Part shown: one piece after another, positions 1,233-36,708 of the stretch
Numbering within the stretch: position 1 is the first letter of the stretch
How the letters are laid out: each line of letters opens with the position of its first letter
DNA from: Cyanidioschyzon merolae
Lineage: Eukaryota
Length of the DNA stretch: 64,000 nt
NCBI GenBank assembly: GCA_000091205.1
Contig: AP006500.2
Strand: one strand, 5' to 3'
Position numbers and translations under genes: made by a program
The notes under the pieces: model-generated
What the model was told of the DNA's origin: nothing
What the model saw: the letters and a program-made list of their open reading frames with translations, nothing else
Databases searched by the model: none

Positions 1233-4200
1233 GAGCAGCTCAAGTTGAGTTTGGACGGTAGGTATGGCACCCAAGCGGCGCACGAAAATGCCAGCAAAGC
1301 GAGCGGGCGCGTATCGAACGGGTTCTATGGCTGGAGCCCGAAACGTTGCGGATGCGTTATGAGCCGCGGGCCGGGTACCTGCTGATTTTTTTTGGATGAA
1401 GGTAAGAAAGCATCAGAAGCGCAACGCGGCTCCTGATGTGCTACATGCTGATATGCGCAGGGAAAGTTTGGCGCACGCTTAACTTAATGTAAAGCATGAG
1501 GAGTAATTGAGGATGTTCTCGTTCTTCCCATTGCTCTTTGCGGCGACAAGGCAGACCTTCGAACGCGCTGAATGCTGCTGCTGTCGCTCAAGTGCTATAG
1601 TTCATGGATTCGTTGCGATGCTCGCGTCATTCCCGAAGCTTGGATACGCGCGCTCGTCTGCATGAGAGAAAGGCCTGGGAGCGTCTTCGAATACCACGTG
1701 ACCGTGTCATAGCAGCGGCTACAAATGGTTTTCTCTGACACCCAGCAGAAAGCGTAAAGAAAAGCAATGTCTCCCTAGCGACCGCAAAAGCGATGAACGC
1801 TTGCTCGCGGACGCGGAGAAGGATCTGCCCATGTCCGCGCGCCTGCCGCTAGGGTTTGCTGACTCGCCTTGCCAATGGCCTTCACTAGCAAGCTGCCGAG
1901 TTCAACGTTTGGTTTGCCTAACCATGGACCTCTGAGTTGCTTTGCGTGCGACCTACGCCAGACAGTAGCTCGCAACCTTAAGTGGTGTAACTGGCGATAG
2001 TACGCATTCTTGGTACATGCGCCACTAGAACCAGGTAGAGACCTCCATGAGAGCCTCGTCACTGCAGCTTGAACTGAGAACACTCCTATTCGATTTCGTT
2101 GGACCGCGGGATTGTCTAAACAAAGCACGAGATCCTCGACTGCGCGATGTTTAACGTCGCAGCAGTGAAGTACGGAGCACCCGCGCTAGCACGTCGTTCT
2201 TGTTTGATTTGATTTTCTCGCAGATATTCTTCACAAGGAATGCTTCCAGTATCTTCAAGAAAAGTCGCTGGGATGCTTTATACTGTCACAGCTGGCTTGC
2301 GAAAATTATCGGCCTCTTACAAGCAAGTTATTCCAAATTCAGTGGGTGGACAAACCTTCCGCCTCGTCGTGCATATGCACGCCGTCATGCGCCCAACGCA
2401 GAACTTTTCTTTAACTCTGTTTACACAACTGTATCTTCGTCAATCCATTCCATTCCGTACCTTGTCTTCGCGAGACTGCCAAAGAAGCCACGCGATGTGA
2501 AGTTCATGTTCCGTTGACTCGATCGCTGACGAACAAACACGGATGGACGAAAAAAAGCAGGCTTCAACCGGAAGCGTCCAGCGTTGAATACCACGCTATC
2601 GATATCGGGCGGAAACGCGGATGCGCATTTCATGGGTGACGGGCATTCGTCTCACTCGATGACACTTCACTCCGGAGATGTCGTCCACCGGTAGATGGGT
2701 ACACAAAGGGCAGCAAAACGCCGTTCGTGAAACTGAGACATGCAAGCATGACGACAACATCAGCCCTGGCCGCGGTTCGATCACATGGTTATCGACAATT
2801 CGAATAACGCGCAAGTTCCTACGAAACCTGATGCTTCGTCGAAGCACGCTTCGTGGCTTCTCACTGCGATACGCTTCCGTCCTACTCTTCGATAATGTGA
2901 CTTTCGATCGTTCAAAAACGGTCAACAAGTAAACAGGTGAGATTGGCACTGAGCGGCGCATCGAGCTAGCCTATTTTCCCTGGTTCAGTCCAGTCCACGA
3001 AGCCTTCTCTGTTGTCAAACGCCTCGTTTATGGCAACAGATTCATAGACGAGTCGTTCGCATCCGTGATCCCTTTCTTCGGAAAATCGTTCTGTACCTTT
3101 GTTAGCCCTGAGCTGCTGTGCAGGCGCTATGATCATGCACGGGAGAGAGAGAGAGCTTATGCACTTCGGTTCATGGGCGTGCTCGTGATGAAGAAAATGA
3201 CGAAAATGTCGGTAAGAAATAGGCGATACACGATTAGAGAAGGCTAGCTTCGGGAAAAACGTCCAGCCAGAGTTCCGAAGAAAGAACGGTTATGGAGTAC
3301 ATCAAATACTGTTACGCAACCCAGCCAGGTAAAGGAAGATGGGAAGACGGGGCTGGTCTCTGCGAGTAGATACGAAAGATGCGAACAACCTCACGAAAAG
3401 CATCTGCGATGCTCATTCAAGCTTCCTTGTTTACGGAGAAGAAATGAAAAGAAGTTTACCGGGAAGATGCGGATCGGCGACATGTCCATCTGCATGCACT
3501 TCATGAAACCTAGGCCTACATCGAGCAACGGAGCTTATTTCCATTCATTCAAGGCAAATGAAGAGCAAAACTTTGTGATGAGCATGTATCCCGGGTTCGA
3601 GGAGGTTACAGCGGCCGCCGAACCCTGAAATCATGCGCATGGATCAAAAGACGTCAATGGAAAGCAAGCCAAGCGGCTAAACGGTTTCAACATTGACTAG
3701 TATAGAGAGTCGGGCATGGCAGACGCCAGGACGCATACGAACAAGAGGAATGACGGCGTCGAAAGTTATCTCGACGTTCTGAGCACCGCATCGAGCATGG
3801 CGTTATGCTTTGTATGTCTCGTTCGGAGCGCATACAAGTGTCCAAGTTGCACGTGCGGACCGTGTTTCGTGGACATGGACAACACAGAGCTGGAGTCGCC
3901 AATGACGTGCATTAGACGGGGTATGAAATGTGCATCCACCAACTGGCTCAATATCCAGGGAGGGGATATAAAAGACGCATAGCATCGTTTGATGGTGATA
4001 GCAAATTGCACTGGACGTGCCGTGGTACGGAATGGGTGGACTCCTGCATTCTCGCCGATAGCGTACCACGAGTGCAGAAATCGGCTCTGCTCAATTCCCG
4101 TCGATGCGGTTACAGCGACATACACACGTCATGAGCACGGGTGAACGCTCTGACAGACACAGAAGAAGAGTTTGGAGCGGATCCGTGCGCTTGAGTTTTG

Positions 4201-5606
4201 TGCGAGGTGAGCCAACCGAGCATCCGATGCCGAGGCCATTAAAAATAAAAAGGCTCGCTATGGAGTTCTTCGATCGGCAACTATATCCGCGCAAGCACTT
4301 TCCGCACCAAAACGTGACCGCTCCGATTAACATTCGAAGATGTCTCGTACTTCAGAAGCGTCCGGTGGCTTTACGTCGAGCGATTTTCTTCGATGCAATC
4401 ATTCTGGACTTAGTGTAGGTATTGCGCTGAAATATACAAGACTTGCGTTGAAAAAATCAGTGGCCAAGAGCGCGAGCTTGGATTCCCGCCTGGAGCAACC
4501 CACAGGGGTGGCACGGTTCAGGAATCCAGCAAGGCTCCAGTACCGCGCACATCTTTCCACCTGAAACGATTTCTATGGACAGTCGGTAGACGATCATCAT
4601 ATTCCATTATTCGATATTCCTAGCAATAAAATCAGCTCGATGCGAATTGCTAGCCTATATAGGTGCACGCGAAAGTGAGCAGCGCTCTTTTGCAACCTCG
4701 CGCGTCTCGGATGCGTGCAGCGCCTCCGAAGTGACGGATTTCATGGACGCTCGTGACGTCCGATTTTTCCATGGACAAAACGTCTACATTGGCCAGCGTG
4801 CTCCGATTACGCGCTTTTATCTTCTTTCTTTTTTTCTGTGTTTTTTTGCAGTGCGCGGTGACGTCCGATCCGTTTCCGACACATGCTCAGATACGCCGCA
4901 ACTCAAACTCAGGGTAAATTATCTCATGAGCAGTATTCACTGGTAACTTTGAAAGATCACTTCCAGCCGTAACAGCTACCGCTTGAGAATACTGAGGCAA
5001 TCGCATTGCCAGCGGCATCTGGAGCTCAACGACGCCATCGCGTTGCCGATCCTGGAACTTGCCTCGCTCTCCGAGCACGCAAAAGTCGCTCCGTCTCCGT
5101 GCGAGGCACGCGCAGTGGCCGTCGATGCAGCGCCGTCGCAAGCGTCCACCACAGGCGCGCTGGGAACACCCATATCAGTAGTGGATCCCTCCAACTTCTA
5201 TTTCAAACAAGAGGCCCGTTCTACACCTTATGGAACGTACTGATCTTTAGAAAGCAAGGATAATCCTATTTTGGACTGCTGTTCGGCATGATGCATCCCC
5301 AGGGTGCTCCTTCAGATCGTCGACCTACCAGCGTCCAGCAGCGCTCGCGAGTACGCGGCAGTGTGCGCGCGCTTGACACGCGGCCCGCGACACGCATCGC
5401 GTTCGCCAACGAATCTGCATCCGCACCTGTCACGTGTACTGACGAGAAACGGGGCGGGTAGCAACGCCTTTGGACGGAGGGTTTGTGTTTGCTGCTCGTT
5501 GCAGCCGTTCTGGGTGCACTCAGTGACTACGTGACTGGAGCTGCGAGGTCTAGGTTGGGTGCTGACCTCGCAGTTGACTGCTCATCGACCGCTTTTTTTT
5601 TTGTAA

Positions 5607-7841
5607 ATGAGCGCACCCGTGGAGCGACTCGAGGAAATTGACGTGGCAGTTCAGCGGGCTGCGCAAGACTTTAGCCTTCGGGAGTTGCACTTCCACGCGC
5701 TGCCGGCGGTCTATCGGCAGGAACTGGAGGAGCAAGAAGGTGCGGTATCGCAGCGTGCGAGTGGTCCCAGGTGCAGCGTTGGTGTTGCGGTGAGCGGTGT
5801 GCCTGCAGAGGCGGCGGCGCGCAAACTCGCGCGCGACACCCGTGCGGACATCCTGCTTCGCGTTACGCTCGGTGAACCGCGCATTGGCTCTTTCCAAGCA
5901 ATAAGCTTGCGTCGCCAGAGACTGCGTACGAATTCGGAACTGGAGGTATTCCAATGGCTGGAGCGCCGTCTCGAAGGCCAGGGCCACGGCGTCGCGGATC
6001 CGAGCACAGGAAGCGCTGCGGATGGAGGCGCGCTCCTCTTCCGCATCACCGGCCCTGAAGGTGTGCAGCATGTATTTACAGGTTGGTCGAACGATTGGAT
6101 ACAGTGCACGGCGGTTTTTCATGCGAACTTTTTTGATGATCTAGACATGCTGGTGGACGTGCTCTGGAACCCGCCCGAAAACGGAACATCTGGAGGACAG
6201 GCCACCTCCACGAGCCAGTTTATCGGCAGAGCGGCCATCATGGCTTCAGAGCTCGTCGAGATGAAGGGTGTACTGCAGCGACCGTTGGTCAATGACGCGC
6301 ATAGCGTCATCGGTGAATTCCGGTGCGAATACTGTGTGATTAAGCCGTACGCGGGTACCTTGCCTCCGCGAATGGCACAGTTGCGTTTCAGTCTGAATGA
6401 AGGAATCAATGAGCGCAAGAAGATCCAACTTATCGGTCATCGCGGGGCTGGTAGTCAAAAAACGCGCAGCCGCGTCCAGGAAAATACGGTGTTGAGCTTT
6501 CTGACCGCGATACGCAAGGGCCTGGTGGATGCGATCGAGCTGGATGTGCAGTTGACCCGCGATCAAGTACCGGTCATTTACCATGATTTCTTCATCCGTT
6601 GCGTAGACGAGGACGACGTCGATGAGAGTGACGACGAGCGTTTTCGGACCGCGTGGAGCGCTTCACCCGTTCGCTCGGATCGCGGTGCGCGTCTCAACGA
6701 GAGCATGTTGAACGGCTCCCGGGTTTTGACGCGCTCATCACGGACTCCAGATGACAGTGCCGAAGACGTACACTGCACCTGTGAAACGGCCAACTTAGAG
6801 TATGCTTCGGAGCGTGACAGTTGCAGAGCGTCTGCAGTCTCGGCGAACAGCACACACCATGTTGCAGCAGCGGATGCAACGGCCCCGCCGTCGACGAACA
6901 CGCTGACGAATGCCTCGACGAGCGATCAGCCGCACTGTCTCCGGGATCATGCTCGGGCGAGTGGCAAGGCGAACCAACCGAAATCGAGGCGTTACGGAAC
7001 ACCTATTTATTCTCTAACGTACGAAGAGTTCAAGAGCGCGTGCCGCAGCATGCCCCGTTCGCGCAGCCGCGGCGGTAATCTCCGTGTCCACGGAACGACA
7101 CCGCAGAGAGAGCCGCGCTGGTCCGATGAGTGGTCGGATTTCACGCGGGTGGCATCATCGGACGGGAACCTGGGGTATCTGGTACGCCATTTCTCCGAGA
7201 GCAGTGAGCGCACCGATGACGCGAATCCTATCGCGATGATACGGGACAACGCGCTGCCGTCGCTGCGTCGCGTTCTTGATCGGGTTCCCGAGGAAATCAC
7301 GCTTCTTGTCGAAATCAAGTATCCAACACCAGAATTAATGAGAGAAACGTCGCTACCCTATCCGGAGCGCAATCACTTCATCGATCGCGTCCTCGAAGTC
7401 ATTTTCCAGAAGGGCAGCCTCAAGCGTCGCATTGTCTTTCTCAGCTTCGACCCGGATGTTTGTCTGATGGTTCGCAAGAAGCAAGCCATTTACCCGGTAT
7501 GCTTCCTGAATGCGGCTGGACGAAGCGCCATGAGTGAACATAGCGACCCGCGGGCACTTAGCGTAGCGAACGGCATCGCGTTTGCGGTCTGGGCCGGCCT
7601 CGACGGCATGGTGCTTCTGTGTGATCTGATTTTCGAAGAGCCTGGTATCGTTGAAATCATTCATTCCGCTGGACTCAAAGTTTACTGTTACGGGAGCTCT
7701 ACCGCCGAGCCTCATTACTGTGAACAGCTCATTCATTGGGGTGTCGACGGTATTATCGCCGATCGGGTCGGCTACATTGCACGAGCCTTGAACCCACTCT
7801 TCATGGCGAATGCGAATCCGGAAACGATCGAAACCGCGTAA
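5607..7841 (+). CDS. Glycerophosphodiester phosphodiesterase (GDPD) domain protein with a roughly 270-aa N-terminal extension and an acidic/low-complexity insertion.
   Basis: IQLIGHRGAGSQ...ENTVLSFLTAIRKGLVDAIELDVQLTRDQVPVIYHDFFI matches the GDPD catalytic HRG/E-x-D-V-x-L-T-x-D core. The C-terminal VYCYGSS...WGVDGIIADR matches the GDPD C-terminal strand. It is a single 744-aa ORF. A T10 run lies just 5' of the ATG. Confidence 0.85.
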   Translation: MSAPVERLEEIDVAVQRAAQDFSLRELHFHALPAVYRQELEEQEGAVSQRASGPRCSVGVAVSGVPAEAAARKLARDTRADILLRVTLGEPRIGSFQAISLRRQRLRTNSELEVFQWLERRLEGQGHGVADPSTGSAADGGALLFRITGPEGVQHVFTGWSNDWIQCTAVFHANFFDDLDMLVDVLWNPPENGTSGGQATSTSQFIGRAAIMASELVEMKGVLQRPLVNDAHSVIGEFRCEYCVIKPYAGTLPPRMAQLRFSLNEGINERKKIQLIGHRGAGSQKTRSRVQENTVLSFLTAIRKGLVDAIELDVQLTRDQVPVIYHDFFIRCVDEDDVDESDDERFRTAWSASPVRSDRGARLNESMLNGSRVLTRSSRTPDDSAEDVHCTCETANLEYASERDSCRASAVSANSTHHVAAADATAPPSTNTLTNASTSDQPHCLRDHARASGKANQPKSRRYGTPIYSLTYEEFKSACRSMPRSRSRGGNLRVHGTTPQREPRWSDEWSDFTRVASSDGNLGYLVRHFSESSERTDDANPIAMIRDNALPSLRRVLDRVPEEITLLVEIKYPTPELMRETSLPYPERNHFIDRVLEVIFQKGSLKRRIVFLSFDPDVCLMVRKKQAIYPVCFLNAAGRSAMSEHSDPRALSVANGIAFAVWAGLDGMVLLCDLIFEEPGIVEIIHSAGLKVYCYGSSTAEPHYCEQLIHWGVDGIIADRVGYIARALNPLFMANANPETIETA

Positions 7842-27304: not shown

Positions 27305-27916
27305 CTATGCATAGCCGCATGACACGAGAATCTCTTTCAAATCCGCAGGTAATTTGGCTTCCGCGCGTGCCTTAGCCTCTTCTAAGAGTTTATTCTCCTG
27401 TTTGCGTCGCTCGTACCGTTCCTGTGCCAACTTTTTGCGCTTTTCTTCGAGCTTGTCTACGATTGCTGCACGCTTCCAACCTACTTCAGCACTCAGGCGT
27501 CCAAGTCGGGTCCACTTGCGATCTGGTCGGAGTCGCAGTATCCTCAGGGCACACGGCACGACGCGGCGCTTTGCCTTATCATATGGCGGTGGGATGCCGT
27601 CGAAGGTCTCGAGGCGCGCAAGCGCCTGTGCCCCGCGGGCCGTCTTATGCGGCAGCATGCCTCGTACTGTTCGCCAAAATATTTTTGATGGCGCGCGATA
27701 ATGCCAAGGACCGCATCGCGTCGGGTTCGACGCGTGACGCTTCTGGAGGAACAAGAGGTACTTGTTCTTGTTCCGGATGAAAAGGCCGGAGATCACAAGC
27801 TCCTCACACCGAACCACTATGATCCGTTGTCCGTTTAAGAGCTCTTTCGCTACGACAGCCGCCAGCCGACCAAGTAAGTGGCCGCGTCCGTCAATGACAA
27901 TGGGGCCCTCAAACAT
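27305..27916 (-). CDS. RPL13A: 60S ribosomal protein L13a (uL13).
   Basis: [39 protein letters not shown]...[50 protein letters not shown]...[11 protein letters not shown] matches eukaryotic L13a almost residue for residue. Length 203 aa is typical. Confidence 0.9.
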
Positions 27917-30651
27917 CGACGTGCGCTTTGTCCCGCAAGACTCGGAACCCAGTGTTGAAGCGGAATTCTCGAACGCAGAGCTGCTGCGGATCGTCCGTCG
28001 GACGTGTTGACGCCGCGTCGCGTCACGTGACGTGGCGCCGCTCCGATGCGCATACGTTATTTACAATAAAGTACAAGTTTTAACCTAGCGTGCTGGGAGC
28101 GGTACAGGGACTCTCGATTTCTGGAAATTTATGGACATTGGCGTGGGCCTTCTCATCGGCGGCGTGCGGCTGGACGCCGCTAGGGCGCATCGCACGACAT
28201 TGATGTCCGTATAGAATGGAGCTGGTCCACGTCATGATCTCGGGCGAACACGCAAAAATTTGGTTTTCTACTGTTGGCATGAACACGGGCCCTTGCGGGC
28301 TTTCTCTGGGACTGCTCCCTTTTTGCCATTCTAGGCTCCTGCTTAACATGCATCGGTATCTCCTGTGCCTCCAGCTCCGTTGTCCGTAGTCGAAGCACGT
28401 GGATGGCAGCGTTAAACTCGCGACTAAAGAGCGAAGGGCTGCTGCTCGCGCATACGCGATTATCACATAGAAAGTTGTTATGATCTAGGCGTCGCTTGCC
28501 ATTTTCATCTTTTTTGTTTGGAGCCTAGATTCGCGCTCCGGAGCGTGAACATTTGATTTGCTCGGGTGTGCCACATATGTCCACCAATGCCCCGCATCCT
28601 CCTCCGAGACCCATACTGTGGCGCGTGAAGGCTTGTTTCGTCGCTCAATACATGCCGTTGATGAGCACAGTGGGCTAGCATCGATACTCTCATCTGTTTT
28701 CACTCCAACCGCCGAACCTGACGAAGGGGGTTTTGTTCAGAGCGCCCTCAGTGCATACTATGTGGGGTGCTCATGCAAGCGAACGCTGTTCCATTGGATA
28801 CAAGCTTTCCTGAACGCGAAGCCTTCCATGATGAAACATTTACTTGAAGGAAAGCGCAAGCAGGCGAAGAGATGAAGAAACTTCCATCCGTCTACGCTCC
28901 GTTCATGCAAAGCGATGACCTGCTCTCCACTGGAAGCGATCGCCCCAGCGATGAAATATCGTGTGCAAGCCCGTTTCTTGACTAGCACAAGAGACGCCAG
29001 CCAATTAGATGTTCTCTTATGAACGGTTTTGCGCTGCTTCGGAATGCCGTTTGTCGATGGTCGTGAATTTAGAAGTAATTGTGTTTCGAGTGGGCTCCAT
29101 TATTTTATGTGGAAGGTTCATCGAGTTTTCGGAATGAGTTTGTGAACAAGTCGCCATTTTGAGGACGTCGAGTGCCTTTCACTGTCAATCCAGAGGCCCG
29201 AATGGCTGTACCCACGAGTTACCTTGAAACAGAAAACTCGAAAAATTGAACATTGCATGTTTTCAGCAGTCTACAAGTGCGCAAAAGAGAAGCGCTGATG
29301 TTTCTACACATGCATTGGATGATGATATCGGATCGAATGCGAACCCCTATTCGAGGACTTGGAGAATTTTCTTTATGAAAGTGACGTAACGAATTCCAGA
29401 TGAAAGAATCGCGGAAGCAGCTCCGAAATAGCGACCGAGAATCCTGAAACTGCACGCTCATCCGAAGGCCCTTCATCCTGGACTTTTAATGCCTAGCGGG
29501 TAATTCTAAAACCAGCTCGAACATGGACCCAAGTACAGAAAGAGATCATGCAGTACAGTGTTCCATTTCCATCTGACATGGCATTGGATACGCGCCACCT
29601 TCTCCAAGCAAGGTTCAGCGAGCCGGTAGCGCATGCGGATCCAGCGCTCCATGCAATTCCTCATCGGTGAATACCGACCGACGACCCGTGAAGCGAATCT
29701 GCGATGCAGTCCAAACACGATTGCAAGGGCGAGGCTCGGTGCCCAGGGACTCGTCCTCATCGGCGGACTTGTCCAACGCCTCGGGCCGCGGAGACAGGCC
29801 TACGTACGCAGCCTGTCCGAGCACACACTGACGTACAGACGCGATTACGCATGGGGTGAAACATTCCTCGAATGGAAACATTCAGCCGTATGGCAAAGCT
29901 AGTGCGTCTCCGAGCTGCATTCGCAGTGTCGGTATAGATGACATTGCGGATGTGCGCGGCAGGCTCTGGGTACGGTGTCCATGCAAAACGACCATCCTGC
30001 CCGCCATAACTGTACGGGTGATGGCTCTCGGACCATGAGGTTACAGTGCGACATAATAGACACACTCCCATATGCCGGTACTCATTGCACAGTCGCAGAT
30101 TCCTGGTTCTCGTAAACGAATATGCAAGGAGATATCCCGCGCGCCGCTCCTCTATGCATCGATTCCGCCACAGAGCGCCTGCAGCGGGGCACACACCCAG
30201 CGACCCCGTTCACGGAATAGCTGACTCGAGCCTTATCACCACATGACCAACCCGTATTCTATTGTAAACGGAGAGCGAAAGCATGAACGCTGCGAGCCGT
30301 TACTACCCAACGCTCTCCGGCTGGTCGATGACGTCCTGTCTTCCGCGTGCAGCGACGCAGCTGTAGACGAAACGGCGCGCGCTACGCATACCCTGTCGCA
30401 GTGTGGATTTTTTAATCGGACAGAACTTTTGCACAGGCCAGCGTTCCCCGACTGTGCGCTTCATATCAGCGCATGGTAAAGCATCCATCATTCCACGCCC
30501 TACTTCCAAGTTCCACTACCAATACTTCCTCTCAGATATACCAGTCGTTTGATCCGTTCTATCGTGTGCCGGGTGCATGCCCTGATCATCGGCGATAGCG
30601 CCTAGAGCGCCGGAGCGCGCTGCCGATGCGCGCGTCGCCGACGCCGCATCC

Positions 30652-31878
30652 GTGATTCCACGTTTCAACGCGCTCACACGAGCGATACGAAACCTCACCT
30701 GTTTTCACTCTATGGCGAGTACTGCTACGCATCGAGCGGAGCGTCTAGTCGGGGATGAAGTTTGGGACCCAGAAACCCAAGAGGTTCACGGCGGTCAGAC
30801 GTGGCAACGCTGCGGAGACGCGTTCGTGGAGGACTTTTCCGTCACCACAAATGCGTTAGGGGCACCGGCGTCCGCACTTGGTGCTGCGCGAGAAGCTCTC
30901 AGCCTGGTCCACCATTACCCCGCGGCGGACTGTGCCGAGGCCCTTAGAGCGCTGTCAGCGTTTTTAGGCGGCTGGCCGACAGATCAGCTCCTTCTCGGCA
31001 ACGGTGCGAGCGAGTTCATCGATCTCGTGATGCGTGTCGCAACCCGAGCCGGCGGTGGCGTTTGTCGAACTGGCCCCTACGAAGCTGCGTACCGGGAATA
31101 CGACAGGGCGGCACGGGCCGCAGCTCGGCGGGTTTGTACCTGGGCCGATACCGAAAACGGCGACGCGCTCACGCTCGGAGAGCAGGTCGGTGTCACCGTG
31201 ATTGTGCACCCGAACTCTCCGACTGGAGACTGTGCTTCCCTCGAGCAACTGGAGGCGTGGATTCGAACCCCGAGCCCAGTAGAGGCGCCCGATGCGGTCT
31301 TCGTAATTGACGAGTCCTTCATGCCGTTTCAGGGTCCACAATGGCGAGCGCAGTCTGCGCTGCAGCTCGTGGAACGGTACCCGTCTCGAGTTCTGGTCAT
31401 CCAGTCGTGGACGAAGCTATGGTGTTGTCCAGGGCTGCGGCTGGGTTCCATCGCCGGATCCAAAGCTTGGATTCGAGAGTTGAAGCGCCTGCAAACGCCG
31501 TGGAGCTGTAACACGATGGCGCAGGCGTTTTGCGTCGCTGCCGCATACGATACCGCCTACATGCAATCAACGTGGCAATTGCTGCCTAAATGGCGGGAAC
31601 GGCAGGAGCAGCTCTTGAAAGCGTTTCCGCTGCGCTGGAGTGTGAATGAGAACAGCCCCCGATGGGTGCCTTGGGTCTACGTCAACTGTGGCAGTGCGGA
31701 GATCGCTGAACGTGCAACGGCCTGTGCTTTCCGGGCCGGATGCCCCGTGAGATGGTGCGCGTCCTTTGGTCGACCGACGTGTCTGCGTCTTGGCGTACGC
31801 GCACCCGAGAAACAGGATATTCTCATGAGCGCACTTCGAATGGAATTCGCCTCGGACGGCTACGAGGCGTCATCGTAG
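30652..31878 (+). CDS. Class I/II PLP-dependent aminotransferase of the CobD/CobC/HisC subfamily (threonine-phosphate decarboxylase-like). Alternative start at 30712 (MASTATH...).
   Basis: HGGQTW...DFSVTTNALGAP resembles the CobD N-terminal HGG...DFSxNxNPLGxP motif. VHPNSPTGD is the N-P-x-N-P-T-G aminotransferase motif. SWTKLWCCPGLRLGS is the PLP-lysine motif SxxKxxxxPGLRxG as in CobD (SLTKFYAIPGLRLGY). Confidence 0.75.
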   Translation: MIPRFNALTRAIRNLTCFHSMASTATHRAERLVGDEVWDPETQEVHGGQTWQRCGDAFVEDFSVTTNALGAPASALGAAREALSLVHHYPAADCAEALRALSAFLGGWPTDQLLLGNGASEFIDLVMRVATRAGGGVCRTGPYEAAYREYDRAARAAARRVCTWADTENGDALTLGEQVGVTVIVHPNSPTGDCASLEQLEAWIRTPSPVEAPDAVFVIDESFMPFQGPQWRAQSALQLVERYPSRVLVIQSWTKLWCCPGLRLGSIAGSKAWIRELKRLQTPWSCNTMAQAFCVAAAYDTAYMQSTWQLLPKWRERQEQLLKAFPLRWSVNENSPRWVPWVYVNCGSAEIAERATACAFRAGCPVRWCASFGRPTCLRLGVRAPEKQDILMSALRMEFASDGYEASS

Positions 31879-32483: not shown

Positions 32484-34616
32484 TTATGATCTGTCCAGGT
32501 CTTCAGGAACGGCATTCGGATCGACTAAATTCAGAAAACTTGTATTGCTCGGGAGCCGTACAAGTGACCCCCAGCTCATTCGCTCGTTGCGTCGTAGAGG
32601 TCGCGTCGACTGCTGCAGGGACACGTCATCGGTGTGATCTCGAGGCGCCGTACGCGGTGCGTGCTCGATAAACATCACATCCGTGTCCGTCGAGTGCGTG
32701 CTCGCGTCCCGCGGCGCATCGCCCTTGCCTCTCGCAACGGGTGTCGCGTTCGGGTACGCACTCGCTGTTGATGCTTCTCCGTCGGTAGCGCGGAATGCCC
32801 CGTGCTCGACGTGCTGCAGCATCTGAAGAAAACGATCCTCCTGAGTGTCGTTGATGGAACTGAGAAACATCCACGCCATCGGTGGTAGTTCATCTGTTGG
32901 CTTGCCGGACAAGAGCTGCAGGATGCTTTGTGTCGAGCCGTTTCGCTGAATCGACAGTGTTCGCGGTGTCAGCGAACGCACAAGCGGAGAAAGCGTTGCC
33001 GAGCGATCCGGTAGCGCGCTCTGGGATGGCAGCAGGCTCGGAGCGTTCACTGGGTATGCTGAAGGTTGCAAGCCGCCCATGCCGCCTGGGTTTGCGACTA
33101 AATCCAGCTCGTCGATTGGCATGGTCACAGCAGCGGTTGCAGTTATCATGGGAGACGCCGTCTCCGGAGTCGGTGAAAAACTATTCACATGACGATCAGA
33201 GAGAACGGATGAAAAATACAAGGGCGATGAAGGTCCGGACCGTCGTTGCCACAAAGGGATCGACTCTCTGGCGGTATCGGGCACAGACTCGATGCCGGAG
33301 CTGTCTCCCGCGGGCGAACCGCGTAGCCTCCTGGTATGTAGCTGCACCTGAAGTAGATCCGCATAGTGCTTGACGCGCGGCTCACATTGCGGATCTTGGG
33401 CAAACGCTTCGAGGCCGCGCTGCAACAGATCCATATCCAATTCCATCGGGCGATACAGGTCTGCCGTTGCGAACGCACCGGCTCGGGAAGCTTGTTGTCC
33501 CGGAACGTATCCTCGATGATCATCACTGGGGGTCGGCGTATGCAAGCTAAGTTCGCTGGGAATCGGGTTGATGCCTTTGACCGGAGCCGGGTACCCCAGG
33601 CGCGTTGTCTCCGGCTCCCGCGTCGCATGTGGATTGAAGAGTGCGTCTTGGCTCCACGTCCGTCCGTATTCGAATTCCTGCAAATCATCCTCTTTCAGAA
33701 TACTCTCCAGTGCTTGGCTAGCCTGTTTGGGCGAAGGATGTTTCAGCTCTCCATCGGCTGCGTCGTCTCGTTGTGATTCTGCGCTTCGGGAGCGGCGTCC
33801 GGCACTACCATCCCCAGCAGTTTTTTGGCGAGCGCTCGAGCGACCGCGCGAGTTTGAGCGCGAACGGCGACCTCTTCCACCATCACTACGAGGGGAATAC
33901 GCGTCACTGCTCGCCAATTCGGGAATATCCAGGGAATCTGTACCCAAAAGCACCGCGAGTTCATCAGGAGCATCTCTTCCGTCCGTAGAGCTCATCGGAA
34001 CCGAGGCTGATTTTGGATCATCCTCTTCTGACTGGCCTTGCTCTTCAACGAGGAAGAGTTCGGTGCGGCGTTGAGTCGCGCTCTCATCCAACGACCGTCG
34101 CCGACGGCCTTTCTTTCGGGATGTCTCGTTCTCTCTGCCCACGGATCGCTCAAATTCCTTGTATCCAGCGGATTGGTCCGTCGTAATCCCTGGTTTCCCG
34201 TCCACACTACTGGCGGAGTCCACGCTGGTGCGCTGCAGGACATCGAGAAGGCTCTGCGATCGAAACTGGTCCCTGGCGGCATCGATCGCCACCATCGGGA
34301 TTCGCATGCCCGTCTGAGAGTCCACTTGTTGGGAGAGAATGAAATATTCCCATATTTGGTCGTTGCTGAGCTGAACATCCCCATTCACAAAGTTCAGAAC
34401 CAGCTTTGCGGCCTCTCGTGCAAGGCGCAGGTAGTATTTCTGGGCGTGTGTGCGCACCTGAGTTGCCGTTCGGGTTGCGACATGCTCCGCAATCGAGCGC
34501 ACATCTTTGAACCCGTAGAGCTCCAGCGCTTGCAAAAAACGCAAGTGCTCTTGCTCGGACCAGTAACGTGGTTGCGGTGTGAGCGCTCCGGAACTTGTTT
34601 TCGCGGTCGCTTTCAT
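32484..34616 (-). CDS. MYB-like (SHAQKYF-class, single-repeat SANT/Myb) DNA-binding protein with a long low-complexity tail. Start chosen at MKATAK; the ORF is open to 34742.
   Basis: WSEQEHLRFLQALELYGFKDVRSIAEHVATRTATQVRTHAQKYYLRL is a canonical SHAQKY(F/Y) Myb/SANT repeat (W...E...F..AL...G..W..I...V..RT..QV.SHAQKYF). The remaining roughly 600 aa are Ser/Pro/Arg-rich and disordered. Confidence 0.7.
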   Translation of the reverse strand: MKATAKTSSGALTPQPRYWSEQEHLRFLQALELYGFKDVRSIAEHVATRTATQVRTHAQKYYLRLAREAAKLVLNFVNGDVQLSNDQIWEYFILSQQVDSQTGMRIPMVAIDAARDQFRSQSLLDVLQRTSVDSASSVDGKPGITTDQSAGYKEFERSVGRENETSRKKGRRRRSLDESATQRRTELFLVEEQGQSEEDDPKSASVPMSSTDGRDAPDELAVLLGTDSLDIPELASSDAYSPRSDGGRGRRSRSNSRGRSSARQKTAGDGSAGRRSRSAESQRDDAADGELKHPSPKQASQALESILKEDDLQEFEYGRTWSQDALFNPHATREPETTRLGYPAPVKGINPIPSELSLHTPTPSDDHRGYVPGQQASRAGAFATADLYRPMELDMDLLQRGLEAFAQDPQCEPRVKHYADLLQVQLHTRRLRGSPAGDSSGIESVPDTARESIPLWQRRSGPSSPLYFSSVLSDRHVNSFSPTPETASPMITATAAVTMPIDELDLVANPGGMGGLQPSAYPVNAPSLLPSQSALPDRSATLSPLVRSLTPRTLSIQRNGSTQSILQLLSGKPTDELPPMAWMFLSSINDTQEDRFLQMLQHVEHGAFRATDGEASTASAYPNATPVARGKGDAPRDASTHSTDTDVMFIEHAPRTAPRDHTDDVSLQQSTRPLRRNERMSWGSLVRLPSNTSFLNLVDPNAVPEDLDRS

Positions 34617-36708
34617 TCGCGCGTTCGCTTTCCGGTTCGTTGGGAGCTGTGAGGAATGAGCAGACTCTCCAAATCGACTAGTACAAGTTGCAGCACGTGG
34701 AAAAACTGCAGCTACGGCACAAGCACTGCCAGAAATATCCATAACAAGCGTTTTTCACGTCGAGGTGCTCCAGTTACCTTTTCGCCTCGTTGGAGCACGA
34801 GCACCCGTGAACCGCGGACCGGAAGGCACGTCTCGGAACAGCGCTGTTGCTTACCTCTAAATCACGAAGCCGTCGTTGCTATATACAGAAGACGAGCTCG
34901 TCGACCAGTAAGGCTAACGCTGGCAAACTCGTCGATAGGCAGGCTGCGGCCTTACTCCGGGGAACCGAAAAGCCTACGTTCAGGGGCTTCTCTACCCAGT
35001 TCTTCCGGACTCTGCAGTTCTTAAAAGTGCTCCCCACAGTTAGTACTCTGTGCAGTGAGCGCTGGTTCCCAGTACTGCTTCCTGGCAACCGAAACGCGCT
35101 CAGTAGCAGGCGAACTTGCCAACGAGTCCAGGCAACTGGATATTGCCTTGTGGCGGTATCAGGAACAGCGCTTCGCGGATGGCTATGCTCGATCGTCCCG
35201 TTGGCGTCACGTGCGTTTCGCGATCCGCGCCAGGGATTCCCTTATTTGCATGGTCAGGGCGCAGCGATGGCCAATGGCGATTCGATCTGTACAGACGCCA
35301 CGTCAATTGTCCCTTTAGGTACAAAATGATACGCATTGTGGGGTGTGCATCTGTGTTGCATGGTGGCAGAGGGCCGGCGGCAACTGCCGCCTCGAGGTCG
35401 TCTGCCCAGATTCATGGAACGTCGGCTCTGCTGGCCCCGGCGGTCTCCGTGGCGTCACCAGGTGCCTCCAAGTAGCCATGTGGTTGATCAGGAACTAGGT
35501 CGCGGTGACACCGCTCGTTCTGCCCGGCGATTGCTCCGCAATGTGCCAAGAATCGTAACCGCCTGCACTATATAGCGAGGGAGCCGCAAGAAGCGCCCGC
35601 GGCAGTGCTTATCATCAAGTGTGAATGATCGAGGAGAGCAACTGATGCTATCTCAGGTACAAGCTCTATAATCGGATGACTAGAAGTTCAGTTCCGTGAT
35701 CGCTTGAGCGTGAGAACGTTTTCCAACCTGGCCGTTGCGTGGCACTTACGCGCACCCTACCCTCGTATCGGGCTGAAGACGTCGCGCAAACGCAAATGAA
35801 TGGGTCCCTGTTGGGCACGACAGAGCGGTGCCTTGTGATTACACGCGGGCTCTTGAGCGATTTCGCTCGATCCAGCGTTCATAATGCTAGCATCTTGGGC
35901 ATTCAGCAGCCGACAAGGCACCAGGTGTGCGTCATGCACGCGTCATCGCAACTGTTGAGCCGTATTTTCTGCATCTGAACGCCTGAGCACCAGTTCAACA
36001 CCACAGGTGGCGTTTCGCGGTGGCGGCATGCACCAGCGACTACGCAGATTCCCCGATAGAAACCGCCATGCGCTGTCGAGAGCCCCGCTGCACGGCATTG
36101 GCGCGAACGGCGGCCTGCAGTCAGTGTTGCGAATGCAGCGCAGCACGTAACCAACAGCAGTTTCCATAATCAACGAAACAAGCGCTACCTCCAGATTCGG
36201 GACATGATTCAGAGCCCAGGATCCAATGAAGGCAGCAACGAGCAGGGTTTTGGTGCCGTGGAGCCTTCGCGCCAGCAGCCAAGGCATCCGCCTGGCAGCG
36301 ATGACAACCGCAGAGAGGCGTCGAGCCCCGCGAGCAGCATCAGAACCGGACAATAACGAACTTAAATACCAATAGGTATACAGATTGGCACGCGCCGCAC
36401 CATCCGTAAGGCTTCTGGACAACGAATCGATTCTATAAAGTAATTTCCCTTACCGACAGAAAGTCTGCACAATTTAGGACACATCGATCACCAGCATCGA
36501 AACGACGTTTGGACGCCTCGCAGGCCCGCCGCGGTTGCAGCGCAGGCGACGGGCGCGCACCGAAGAACGGCCGTCGACCGAGCGCGCGCACTGGGCGGCG
36601 CACTGAGGGCGTCACGCGGCATGCTCGCCAGCGAGCAACCAGCACAAGAACGTGGTGGTGTGGTTTTCGGTAGGCGCCGGCGTCCTCGACCAGGGCGAGC
36701 GGGTGTTC

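Follow-up and report, generated by a model that had tools for sequence, protein, structure and literature searches.

The CobD enzyme of Salmonella enterica (TIGR01140; EC 4.1.1.81; structures 1lc5, 1lc7, 1lc8 and 1lkc) is an L-threonine-O-3-phosphate decarboxylase that gives aminopropanol phosphate for cobamides, and it belongs to the same superfamily as the histidinol-phosphate aminotransferase HisC (TIGR01141; EC 2.6.1.9). A bacterial homologue of CobD, SMUL_1544 of Sulfurospirillum multivorans (6oux, a 'threonine phosphate decarboxylase-like enzyme'), is linked to the formation of ethanolamine-phosphate, has O-phospho-L-serine decarboxylase activity, and governs the synthesis of norcobamides, which carry an ethanolamine linker. 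De novo ethanolamine for phosphatidylethanolamine (PE) and phosphatidylcholine (PC) is otherwise provided by the serine decarboxylase of plants and Plasmodium, or by phosphatidylserine synthase (PSS) and phosphatidylserine decarboxylase (PSD). For Plasmodium, a "serine phosphate decarboxylase" yielding ethanolamine-phosphate "remains to be discovered" (Cobbold et al. 2021, PMC8022201), and our literature search under name variants of phosphoserine decarboxylase found no description of such an enzyme.

Here we describe a gene of the red alga Cyanidioschyzon merolae whose product resembles CobD. The gene lies in a stretch of 64,000 nucleotides from contig AP006500.2 (assembly GCA_000091205.1), hereafter called the window, which is C. 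merolae nuclear DNA. It is already present in the public annotation, where the product (XP_005538419.1) is described as "similar to histidinol-phosphate aminotransferase". Thus, the gene is known and annotated, and only its family assignment and proposed function appear to be new. From sequence comparisons, we lean modestly toward the view that the product is an O-phospho-L-serine decarboxylase that feeds the Kennedy pathway. The broader proposal is that a new eukaryotic family of phosphoserine decarboxylases provides a third de novo route, leading from 3-phosphoglycerate through phosphoserine, phosphoethanolamine and CDP-ethanolamine to PE and PC. Our confidence in this broader proposal is evenly divided.

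Domain fusions and the proposed route to phospholipid head groups

The C. merolae protein belongs to an uncharacterised family with a wide but uneven distribution among eukaryotes. Homologues that are 55-83% identical occur across the red algae (Cyanidiococcus, Cyanidium, Galdieria, Porphyridium, Chondrus, Gracilaria and Pyropia). Others, at about 40% identity, are found in metamonads (Barthelona, the TZLM isolates, Chilomastix and Tritrichomonas), in early-diverging fungi (Kickxellomycotina, Glomeromycotina, chytrids, Blastocladiomycota and Neocallimastigomycota), and in oomycetes, brown algae and acoel animals. An environmental member with 41% identity resides on a compact eukaryotic contig. 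An exhaustive HMMER scan of 1.84 billion representative proteins yielded only 45 clusters at E<=1e-30, followed by a continuum of matches at about 30% identity. Distance-based neighbour-joining (NJ) trees of 51 and 66 taxa, rooted on Escherichia coli HisC and bootstrapped 200 times, divide the family into two branches. Branch A contains the red algae and metamonads, including the C. merolae protein (support 135/200), and branch B contains fungi, stramenopiles, acoels, dinoflagellates and viruses (163/200).

The evidence that bears most directly on function comes from family members that are fused to other domains. In about 100 clusters, the PLP (pyridoxal phosphate) domain of the family is followed by a C-terminal domain with invariant DGHHR and PK(S/T)T.H motifs, and these clusters include nuclear genes from four dinoflagellates, Effrenium, Polarella, Symbiodinium and Durusdinium (P0321, P0338, P0354 and P0359). 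Pfam returns only weak ParBc_2 and GmrSD_N matches for this C-terminal domain, which was identified through sequence and profile searches of the Protein Data Bank (PDB). A profile of 17 such domains matches the Pyrococcus SerK orthologue (1vk1, E 2.8e-15), the "free serine kinase" SerK of T. kodakarensis (5x0b, E 8.3e-15) and the "O-phospho-L-serine synthase" SbnI of S. aureus (5ujd and 6nr6, E 3e-8), with generic ParB nucleases following at E 1e-4. The SerK-like domain of the fusions spans about 150-160 amino acids (aa), compared with 242 aa in SerK, and lacks the middle segment of SerK.

In about 15 clusters there is an additional, N-terminal cytidylyltransferase domain (PF01467). Among PDB entries, this domain matches the human ethanolamine-phosphate cytidylyltransferase (ECT) PCYT2 with 128 bits (3elb, E 2e-36), choline-phosphate cytidylyltransferase (CCT) with 88 bits and the glycerol-3-phosphate cytidylyltransferase TagD with 37 bits. 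The three-domain form is located on giant-virus contigs, namely the GVMAG loci L052, L054 and L055 and a 166-kb IMG/VR contig. For example, positions 3475-5739 of GVMAG-S-1016728-106 (L052) encode ECT-like, CobD-like PLP and SerK-like domains in one polypeptide. On another scaffold (L050), a separate cytidylyltransferase gene lies immediately upstream of a PLP-SerK fusion, and the neighbouring genes encode a patatin, an ELO+desaturase protein, an acyltransferase and LicD. A scan of viral contigs with a single sequence (P0162) found nothing, whereas an alignment-based scan succeeded. Loci L053, L045, L046, L047 and L051 were grouped with L052, L054 and L055 as giant-virus contigs for the three-domain form, and L051 has typical giant-virus gene content.

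The PLP domains of the fusions bear the signature of the family (HGGQ, D[FM]SVTTN, HYP, GNGA[ST]E and SWTK). Among 60 columns that are near-invariant in the eukaryotic proteins, 27 are common to the fusions and to canonical CobDs, including HGG, K235, D200, R243, R347 and R359. Nine others are common to the fusions but not to CobD (T45, T46, H68, S202, W233, S265, W288, P345 and P355), and all nine signature residues are found in the C. merolae protein. T45 takes the place of the invariant Asn of the CobD DFSxN loop (N32 in S. enterica), and T46 replaces Ile, Val or Leu. Specifically, position 45 is Thr in 21 of 22 eukaryotic members and in all eight fusions, and Asn in all eight canonical CobDs. 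The C. merolae protein accordingly lacks the CobD loop pattern DFSxNxNPLG with its invariant first Asn.

Because the partner domains match a serine kinase, which would supply phosphoserine, and an ECT, which would consume phosphoethanolamine, we read the PLP domain as a decarboxylase. The fusions would then, on the simplest view, represent a pathway that proceeds from L-serine to O-phospho-L-serine, phosphoethanolamine and finally CDP-ethanolamine, and the three-domain viral protein would be this complete pathway in one protein. Giant viruses would thereby carry the whole route, presumably to reprogramme membrane synthesis in their hosts. In C. merolae, a cytosolic, CobD-derived PLP enzyme would convert O-phospho-L-serine to phosphoethanolamine and CO2. 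The cytosolic location is predicted because about 16 residues precede the conserved core. Phosphoserine would be supplied by the phosphorylated serine pathway, and phosphoethanolamine would pass directly to ECT (CMS052C) for the production of PE, and then of PC by PE methylation. Such a route would be independent of both serine decarboxylase and PSS/PSD, and would supply most or all of the PE and PC head groups in this alga. A preliminary description of the locus had listed a repurposed enzyme as one option, which is the option we favour in the form of a CobD-type phospho-amino-acid decarboxylase probably recruited to phospholipid head-group synthesis; the pan-eukaryotic family and the link to serine kinase and ECT lay outside that description.

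How would this activity fit the lipid metabolism of the organism? No PSS gene is detected in C. merolae and phosphatidylserine (PS) is undetectable in its cells. Choline kinase, CCT and PEAMT are likewise not detected, PC is produced only via PE methylation, and ethanolamine kinase (EK; CMR011C), ECT and EPT (CMF133C) are present (PMC4928187). Because PSS is undetected and PC is made only from PE, all PE and PC rest on CDP-ethanolamine, and no source of the ethanolamine moiety is assigned in the published lipid map (PMC4928187). C. merolae is an autotroph grown on inorganic medium. In the literature searched, no paper takes up serine decarboxylase in Cyanidioschyzon. If our reading is correct, the enzyme would explain the supply of ethanolamine for all PE and PC in a cell with neither PSS nor the CDP-choline pathway detected. 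A PSD gene (CMK243C) is present although neither a PSS gene nor PS is detected (PMC4928187).

The same reading would give a new entry point to the Kennedy pathway and a function to a conserved family that is mis-annotated as "histidinol-phosphate aminotransferase" or "cobD". Its carriers include red and brown algae, oomycete pathogens, arbuscular-mycorrhizal and gut fungi, trichomonads, dinoflagellates, acoels and giant viruses. The enzyme could also be a selective target, since it is present in oomycetes and trichomonads and no family member from mammals or land plants appears in the match lists.

Several observations weigh against this reading. All of the fusions fall in branch B, whereas the C. 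merolae protein falls in branch A, where we found no fusion and no informative neighbour; the C. merolae gene stands alone, without a SerK-like or ECT-like partner. The protein is about 31% identical to the fused PLP domains, compared with about 26% to canonical CobDs and 20% to E. coli HisC. The trees were built by NJ rather than by maximum likelihood. The one prokaryotic sequence located within the eukaryotic and viral clade has ordinary bacterial, uninformative surroundings (a Nudix protein, ORFans, GT2, LPG synthase and UbiA, with no cob genes). Moreover, C. merolae has kept both EK and PSD (PMC4928187). The gap in ethanolamine supply is itself putative rather than proven, as a plant-type serine decarboxylase could exist. 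What the comparisons show directly is the fold and family, the conserved PLP lysine and Arg framework, the separation from cobalamin CobDs, and the fusions and gene linkage in relatives; we infer the substrate, the product, the transfer of function from branch B to branch A, and the physiological role.

Alternatively, branch A could consist of phospho-amino-acid decarboxylases for another substrate, such as L-threonine phosphate or a different phospho-amine precursor, that are unrelated to phospholipid head groups, the functions of the two branches having diverged. The lack of fusions and informative neighbours found in branch A, its modest bootstrap support and its distance from the fused domains fit this alternative. 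Yet in an alignment of 20 members, 56 columns are invariant over both branches, and the nine family-specific columns are common to both branches and the fusions. In addition, we know of no eukaryotic use for aminopropanol phosphate. We consider a different substrate for branch A unlikely, and continue to favour a phosphoserine decarboxylase.

CobD, HisC and the remaining alternatives

The C. merolae protein resembles CobD more than HisC, but it is an equivalog of neither, because the CobD model ranks first while all of the models score far below their curated cut-offs. With NCBIfam profiles, TIGR01140 (CobD) gives 174.6 bits, which is 116 bits short of its cut-off of 290.55, and TIGR01141 (HisC) gives 121.1 bits, 53 bits under the CobD score, against a cut-off of 276.55. 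The CobC model (Rv2231c family, NF005915) gives 83 bits against a cut-off of 360. The CobD model also ranks first for ten further members from red algae, metamonads, fungi and oomycetes (121-182 bits), none of which reaches the cut-off. It exceeds HisC by 30-58 bits in the nine of these for which HisC is listed, HisC being unlisted at E<=1e-20 for the tenth (P0100). A CobD encoded in a cob operon (L004) scores 247 bits with TIGR01140. Thus, the comparison of models proposed in the preliminary description does place the protein on the CobD side of the CobD/HisC split, as that description had claimed, but the assignment to CobD or CobC proper does not hold at their cut-offs.

Structural comparisons give a similar picture. 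In sequence, S. enterica CobD (1lc5, 2e-18) is the PDB entry that matches best. A fold search with an AlphaFold model of the C. merolae protein (pLDDT 86.6) places all four entries for S. enterica CobD at the top (E 7e-20, TM 0.76/0.82), with HisC structures close behind (3.5e-19).

This proximity, together with the public annotation, raises the alternative that the protein is an aminotransferase, either a HisC paralogue that has diverged or an enzyme that transaminates some other phosphorylated or acidic compound. Pfam detects only Aminotran_1_2 (PF00155, 79 bits, E 5.2e-22, residues 74-388 of the 408-aa open reading frame (ORF); gathering threshold 19.7 bits), and the PLP site and an Arg pair are common to HisC and CobD. 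However, the lead of the CobD model over HisC holds for the C. merolae protein as well as for the nine other members. The N-terminal LNANE[NY]P arm of HisC is absent from the C. merolae protein, which has the CobD-type HGG, whereas E. coli HisC reads LNANEYP in the aligned region and has no His at the HGG position. Nor would an aminotransferase make sense in the fusions, where the PLP domain is accompanied by serine-kinase-like and ECT-like partners. Finally, Tritrichomonas foetus has a family member, and organisms of this kind are not known to make histidine. An aminotransferase is therefore quite unlikely.

The HGG, DFSVTTNALGAP and SWTKLWCCPGLRLG motifs are all present exactly as first described, and they lie on invariant columns of the family. 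Because H26, G28, D41, S43, K235, R243 and G245 are invariant in the 20 aligned members, the HGG, DFS and PLP-lysine motifs are not due to chance. Indeed, the C. merolae protein retains the catalytic framework of CobD, comprising HGG, the PLP lysine K235, D200 directed to the pyridine nitrogen, and the Arg pair, and the HGG/DxS/TK/R pattern is also found in cob-operon CobDs. HGG is common to canonical CobD, while the Q29 that follows it is typical of the C. merolae protein's family (Asp, Asn or Glu in CobD), and W233, within SWTKLWCCPGLRLG, is family-specific. The Arg pair R347/R359 is conserved without exception across the family, the fusions, CobD and HisC, and would anchor the phosphate (or carboxylate) of the substrate. 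In S. enterica CobD, the equivalent R323 and R337 and the His of HGG bind the substrate phosphate.

These residues also bear on the order of the proposed steps. The three-domain fusion is equally consistent with decarboxylation of free L-serine to ethanolamine, which would subsequently be phosphorylated to phosphoethanolamine and converted to CDP-ethanolamine. The phosphorylation would be carried out by EK (CMR011C), which C. merolae retains, or by the ParB-like domain in the fusions. Two points make this order less likely: the Arg pair and the His of HGG do not vary, and SerK and SbnI, the characterised relatives named among the PDB matches of the kinase domain, phosphorylate free L-serine and not ethanolamine. 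Moreover, characterised CobD-type enzymes are not known to act on amino acids that lack a phosphate. We regard the free-serine order as improbable, and retain phosphoserine as the predicted substrate.

Could the protein nonetheless be a true CobD or CobC, producing aminopropanol phosphate for cobamide salvage or remodelling, as the preliminary description had allowed? The top-ranked model, the top-ranked structure and the retained HGG/DFS/TK/R framework are all those of CobD, and late cobalamin genes gained by horizontal gene transfer (HGT) are known in diatoms, although they leave the C. merolae gene unexplained. Against this stand the 116-bit shortfall, the replacement of the DFSxN Asn by Thr, and the presence of family members in Tritrichomonas, gut fungi and acoels. 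The trees included a canonical set consisting of cob-operon CobDs, S. enterica CobD, and CobQ-fused and CbiJ-fused proteins, and the eukaryotic and viral family is set apart from these in 200/200 NJ bootstraps with both taxon sets. The phylogeny called for earlier thus supports a separate clade, in the form of an NJ analysis. No family member was found beside a cob gene or fused to one, an association that does occur among more distant relatives; for example, a Clostridium CobD located between hemB, cobA, cbiG and a GHMP kinase gene is only 24% identical. A published list of the rare algae without known B12-dependent metabolism includes C. merolae 10D, together with Galdieria and Porphyridium, which have only MCM/CblA or CblB, respectively (PMC11439496). 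Because its host is so listed and its clade is separate, a cobalamin role for the gene is very improbable, and neither its neighbours (uL13, Myb and Nup93), nor B12 use by its host, nor its clade associates it with cobamides.

A phyletic correlation with B12, first suggested by the spread of the family over early fungi, oomycetes and red algae, was considered and rejected, and a paper on fungal B12 is silent on the enzyme. The name "cobD" given to the Symbiodinium copy is probably wrong and could mislead B12 surveys of coral symbionts. If our reading is correct, "CobD-like" matches in eukaryotes should not be taken to indicate cobalamin remodelling.

Cyanidiales are known for HGT from bacteria, and the superfamily to which the protein belongs is mostly prokaryotic (9561 matches at E<=1e-3, mostly about 30% identical). 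METE is cited as a case of HGT (PMC11439496). Nevertheless, the recent, Cyanidiales-specific acquisition of a bacterial gene, another origin that had been suggested, is scarcely credible because the best prokaryotic relative is 32% identical, versus 40-60% for other eukaryotes (orthologues from every sampled class of red algae reach 55-60%, those from fungi, oomycetes, brown algae, acoels and metamonads 40%), and the GC content of the gene resembles that of surrounding genes. That relative, the best among 185,579 species genomes in a pattern-limited scan, comes from a single Chloroflexia metagenome-assembled genome (MAG; CAVSVN010000010.1, 1794-2885; locus L001). It carries HGGQVW...EDLSVTAN and is the sole prokaryotic sequence found inside the eukaryotic and viral clade. 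It may represent transfer from a eukaryote or virus to a bacterium, or a relic of the bacterial source. A 140-aa ORF upstream of this gene is not SerK-like.

A separate bacterial clade includes a CobD-like protein from an Aquificaceae MAG (L018, 5400-7196) that is fused to an N-terminal NTP_transferase domain (LicC/MobA-like), which suggests that a parallel 'decarboxylate, then nucleotide-activate' scheme operates in bacteria. Dehalococcoidia MAGs (L008-L032) have one or two copies from this same clade, with a YGGFWDF...DFCYMSNP N-terminus.

The acoels Convolutriloba macropyga and Symsagittifera roscoffensis are the only animals in the match lists. Their family members (P0422 and P0423), annotated 'histidinol-phosphate aminotransferase-like', are located on chromosomes of 68-86 Mb. 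Both species host algal symbionts, and HGT and retention of an ancestral gene are both possible.

The gene and its surroundings

The ORF at 30652..31878 (+) encodes 408 aa when read from a GTG codon. Its 388-aa product matches the C. merolae 10D protein BAM82383.1 (XP_005538419.1; UniProt M1VL51) at 388/388 positions, and because of this identity we place the start of the coding sequence (CDS) at an internal ATG. Thus, the ORF first described is a real gene whose start had been set 60 nt too far upstream, and the excluded segment is probably 5' untranslated region rather than coding sequence.

Table 1. Positions within the window of the CobD-like gene, its conserved motifs and selected neighbours
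Feature	Position	Strand	Basis or remark
Complete intronless CDS, CobD-like fold-type-I PLP enzyme, 388 aa + stop	30712..31878	+	100% identity to annotated protein
In-frame extension from upstream GTG	30652..30711	+	Annotated protein and orthologues begin at ATG 30712; conservation from W17
HGGQ motif, H26-G27-G28-Q29, N-terminal arm	30787..30798 (HGG 30787-30795)	+	Family alignment
DFSVTTN substrate loop, D41-N47, within DFSVTTNALGAP	30832..30852	+	Family alignment; DFSVTTNALGAP begins at nt 30832; loop reads DFSVTTNALG
SWTKLWCCPGLRLG, with PLP-lysine K235 (nt 31414-31416) and PLP-phosphate Arg R243	31405..31446	+	K235 aligned to S. enterica CobD K216
R347 + R359	31750..31788	+	Aligned to R323 + R337 of S. 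enterica CobD
uL13/RPL13A	27305-27916	-	
Myb protein	32484-34742	-	
Class-III aminotransferase, 554 aa	15529-17193	-	PF00202, 304 bits

The genes that surround the CDS are clearly those of a eukaryote. In addition to uL13/RPL13A and the Myb protein, the window includes genes for Nup93/Nic96, a DDI1-like protease, KARI and sulfite oxidase. These genes bear out the earlier statement that the contig is not a contaminant. The 2.8 kb between uL13 and the CDS (27917-30711) are long as an intergenic spacer for a compact genome. This interval has no ORF of at least 200 aa, with short overlapping ORFs listed from 29000 onward, and an Rfam search found no match there or elsewhere in the window. A second PLP enzyme in the window, the class-III aminotransferase, carries about 125 additional aa at its N-terminus, which may target it to an organelle.

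Conserved synteny with uL13 was considered and rejected. In C. merolae, uL13 lies 2.8 kb upstream in divergent orientation, and in Rhizophagus irregularis (L040/L041, 4388-5992 and 6001-7522) it is directly upstream on the same strand, where the gene models P0095 and P0101 fuse the two. Because Porphyridium carries a gene with a Ribosomal_S18 domain (PF01084) at this place and the orientation differs, the linkage is probably coincidence. A 659-aa model from Ambispora leptoticha (P0091) joins the PLP enzyme to NSE1/zinc-finger domains (PF07574 and PF08746), which is most likely an artefact of merging neighbouring genes during annotation, as with the uL13 fusions. The extra length of the branch-A homologues P0029, P0037, P0020 and P0075 consists of low-complexity or read-through N-termini, with no additional domains.

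Comparison with known systems

Among described enzymes, S. enterica CobD is the best match to the C. merolae protein in both sequence and structure. The two have in common the fold-type-I PLP scaffold, HGG, the DxS loop, GNG, Y130, D200, TK235, R243, W264 and R347/R359, and the chemistry is probably the same, namely alpha-decarboxylation of an O-phospho-amino acid. They differ in that identity is only 25-27%, that the loop reads SVTTN in the C. merolae protein and SxNxN in CobD, and that eight more positions are specific to the family. Furthermore, the C. merolae protein has no cobalamin context; its predicted substrate is phosphoserine and its predicted pathway leads to phospholipid head groups. 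HisC has the same fold, PLP lysine and Arg pair for a phosphorylated substrate, but a lower profile score and, as noted above, a different N-terminal arm.

The SerK (5x0b), SbnI (5ujd and 6nr6) and PCYT2 (3elb) structures match the fusion partners in relatives of the C. merolae protein, and have no counterpart in the standalone gene. Serine decarboxylase and the PSS/PSD route achieve the same proposed outcome, de novo ethanolamine for PE and PC, by other enzyme families that act on free serine and phosphatidylserine, respectively. We make no claim for Plasmodium because no family member was found in apicomplexans, and the link to its predicted serine phosphate decarboxylase is conceptual.

SMUL_1544 provides the precedent for a CobD homologue with an ethanolamine-phosphate product. 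It matches the C. merolae protein weakly (6oux, E 5.5e-6, 28.6 bits), and it is a bacterial protein that serves cobamides, not lipids. If our reading is correct, the eukaryotic and viral family would direct comparable chemistry to the synthesis of membrane phospholipids.

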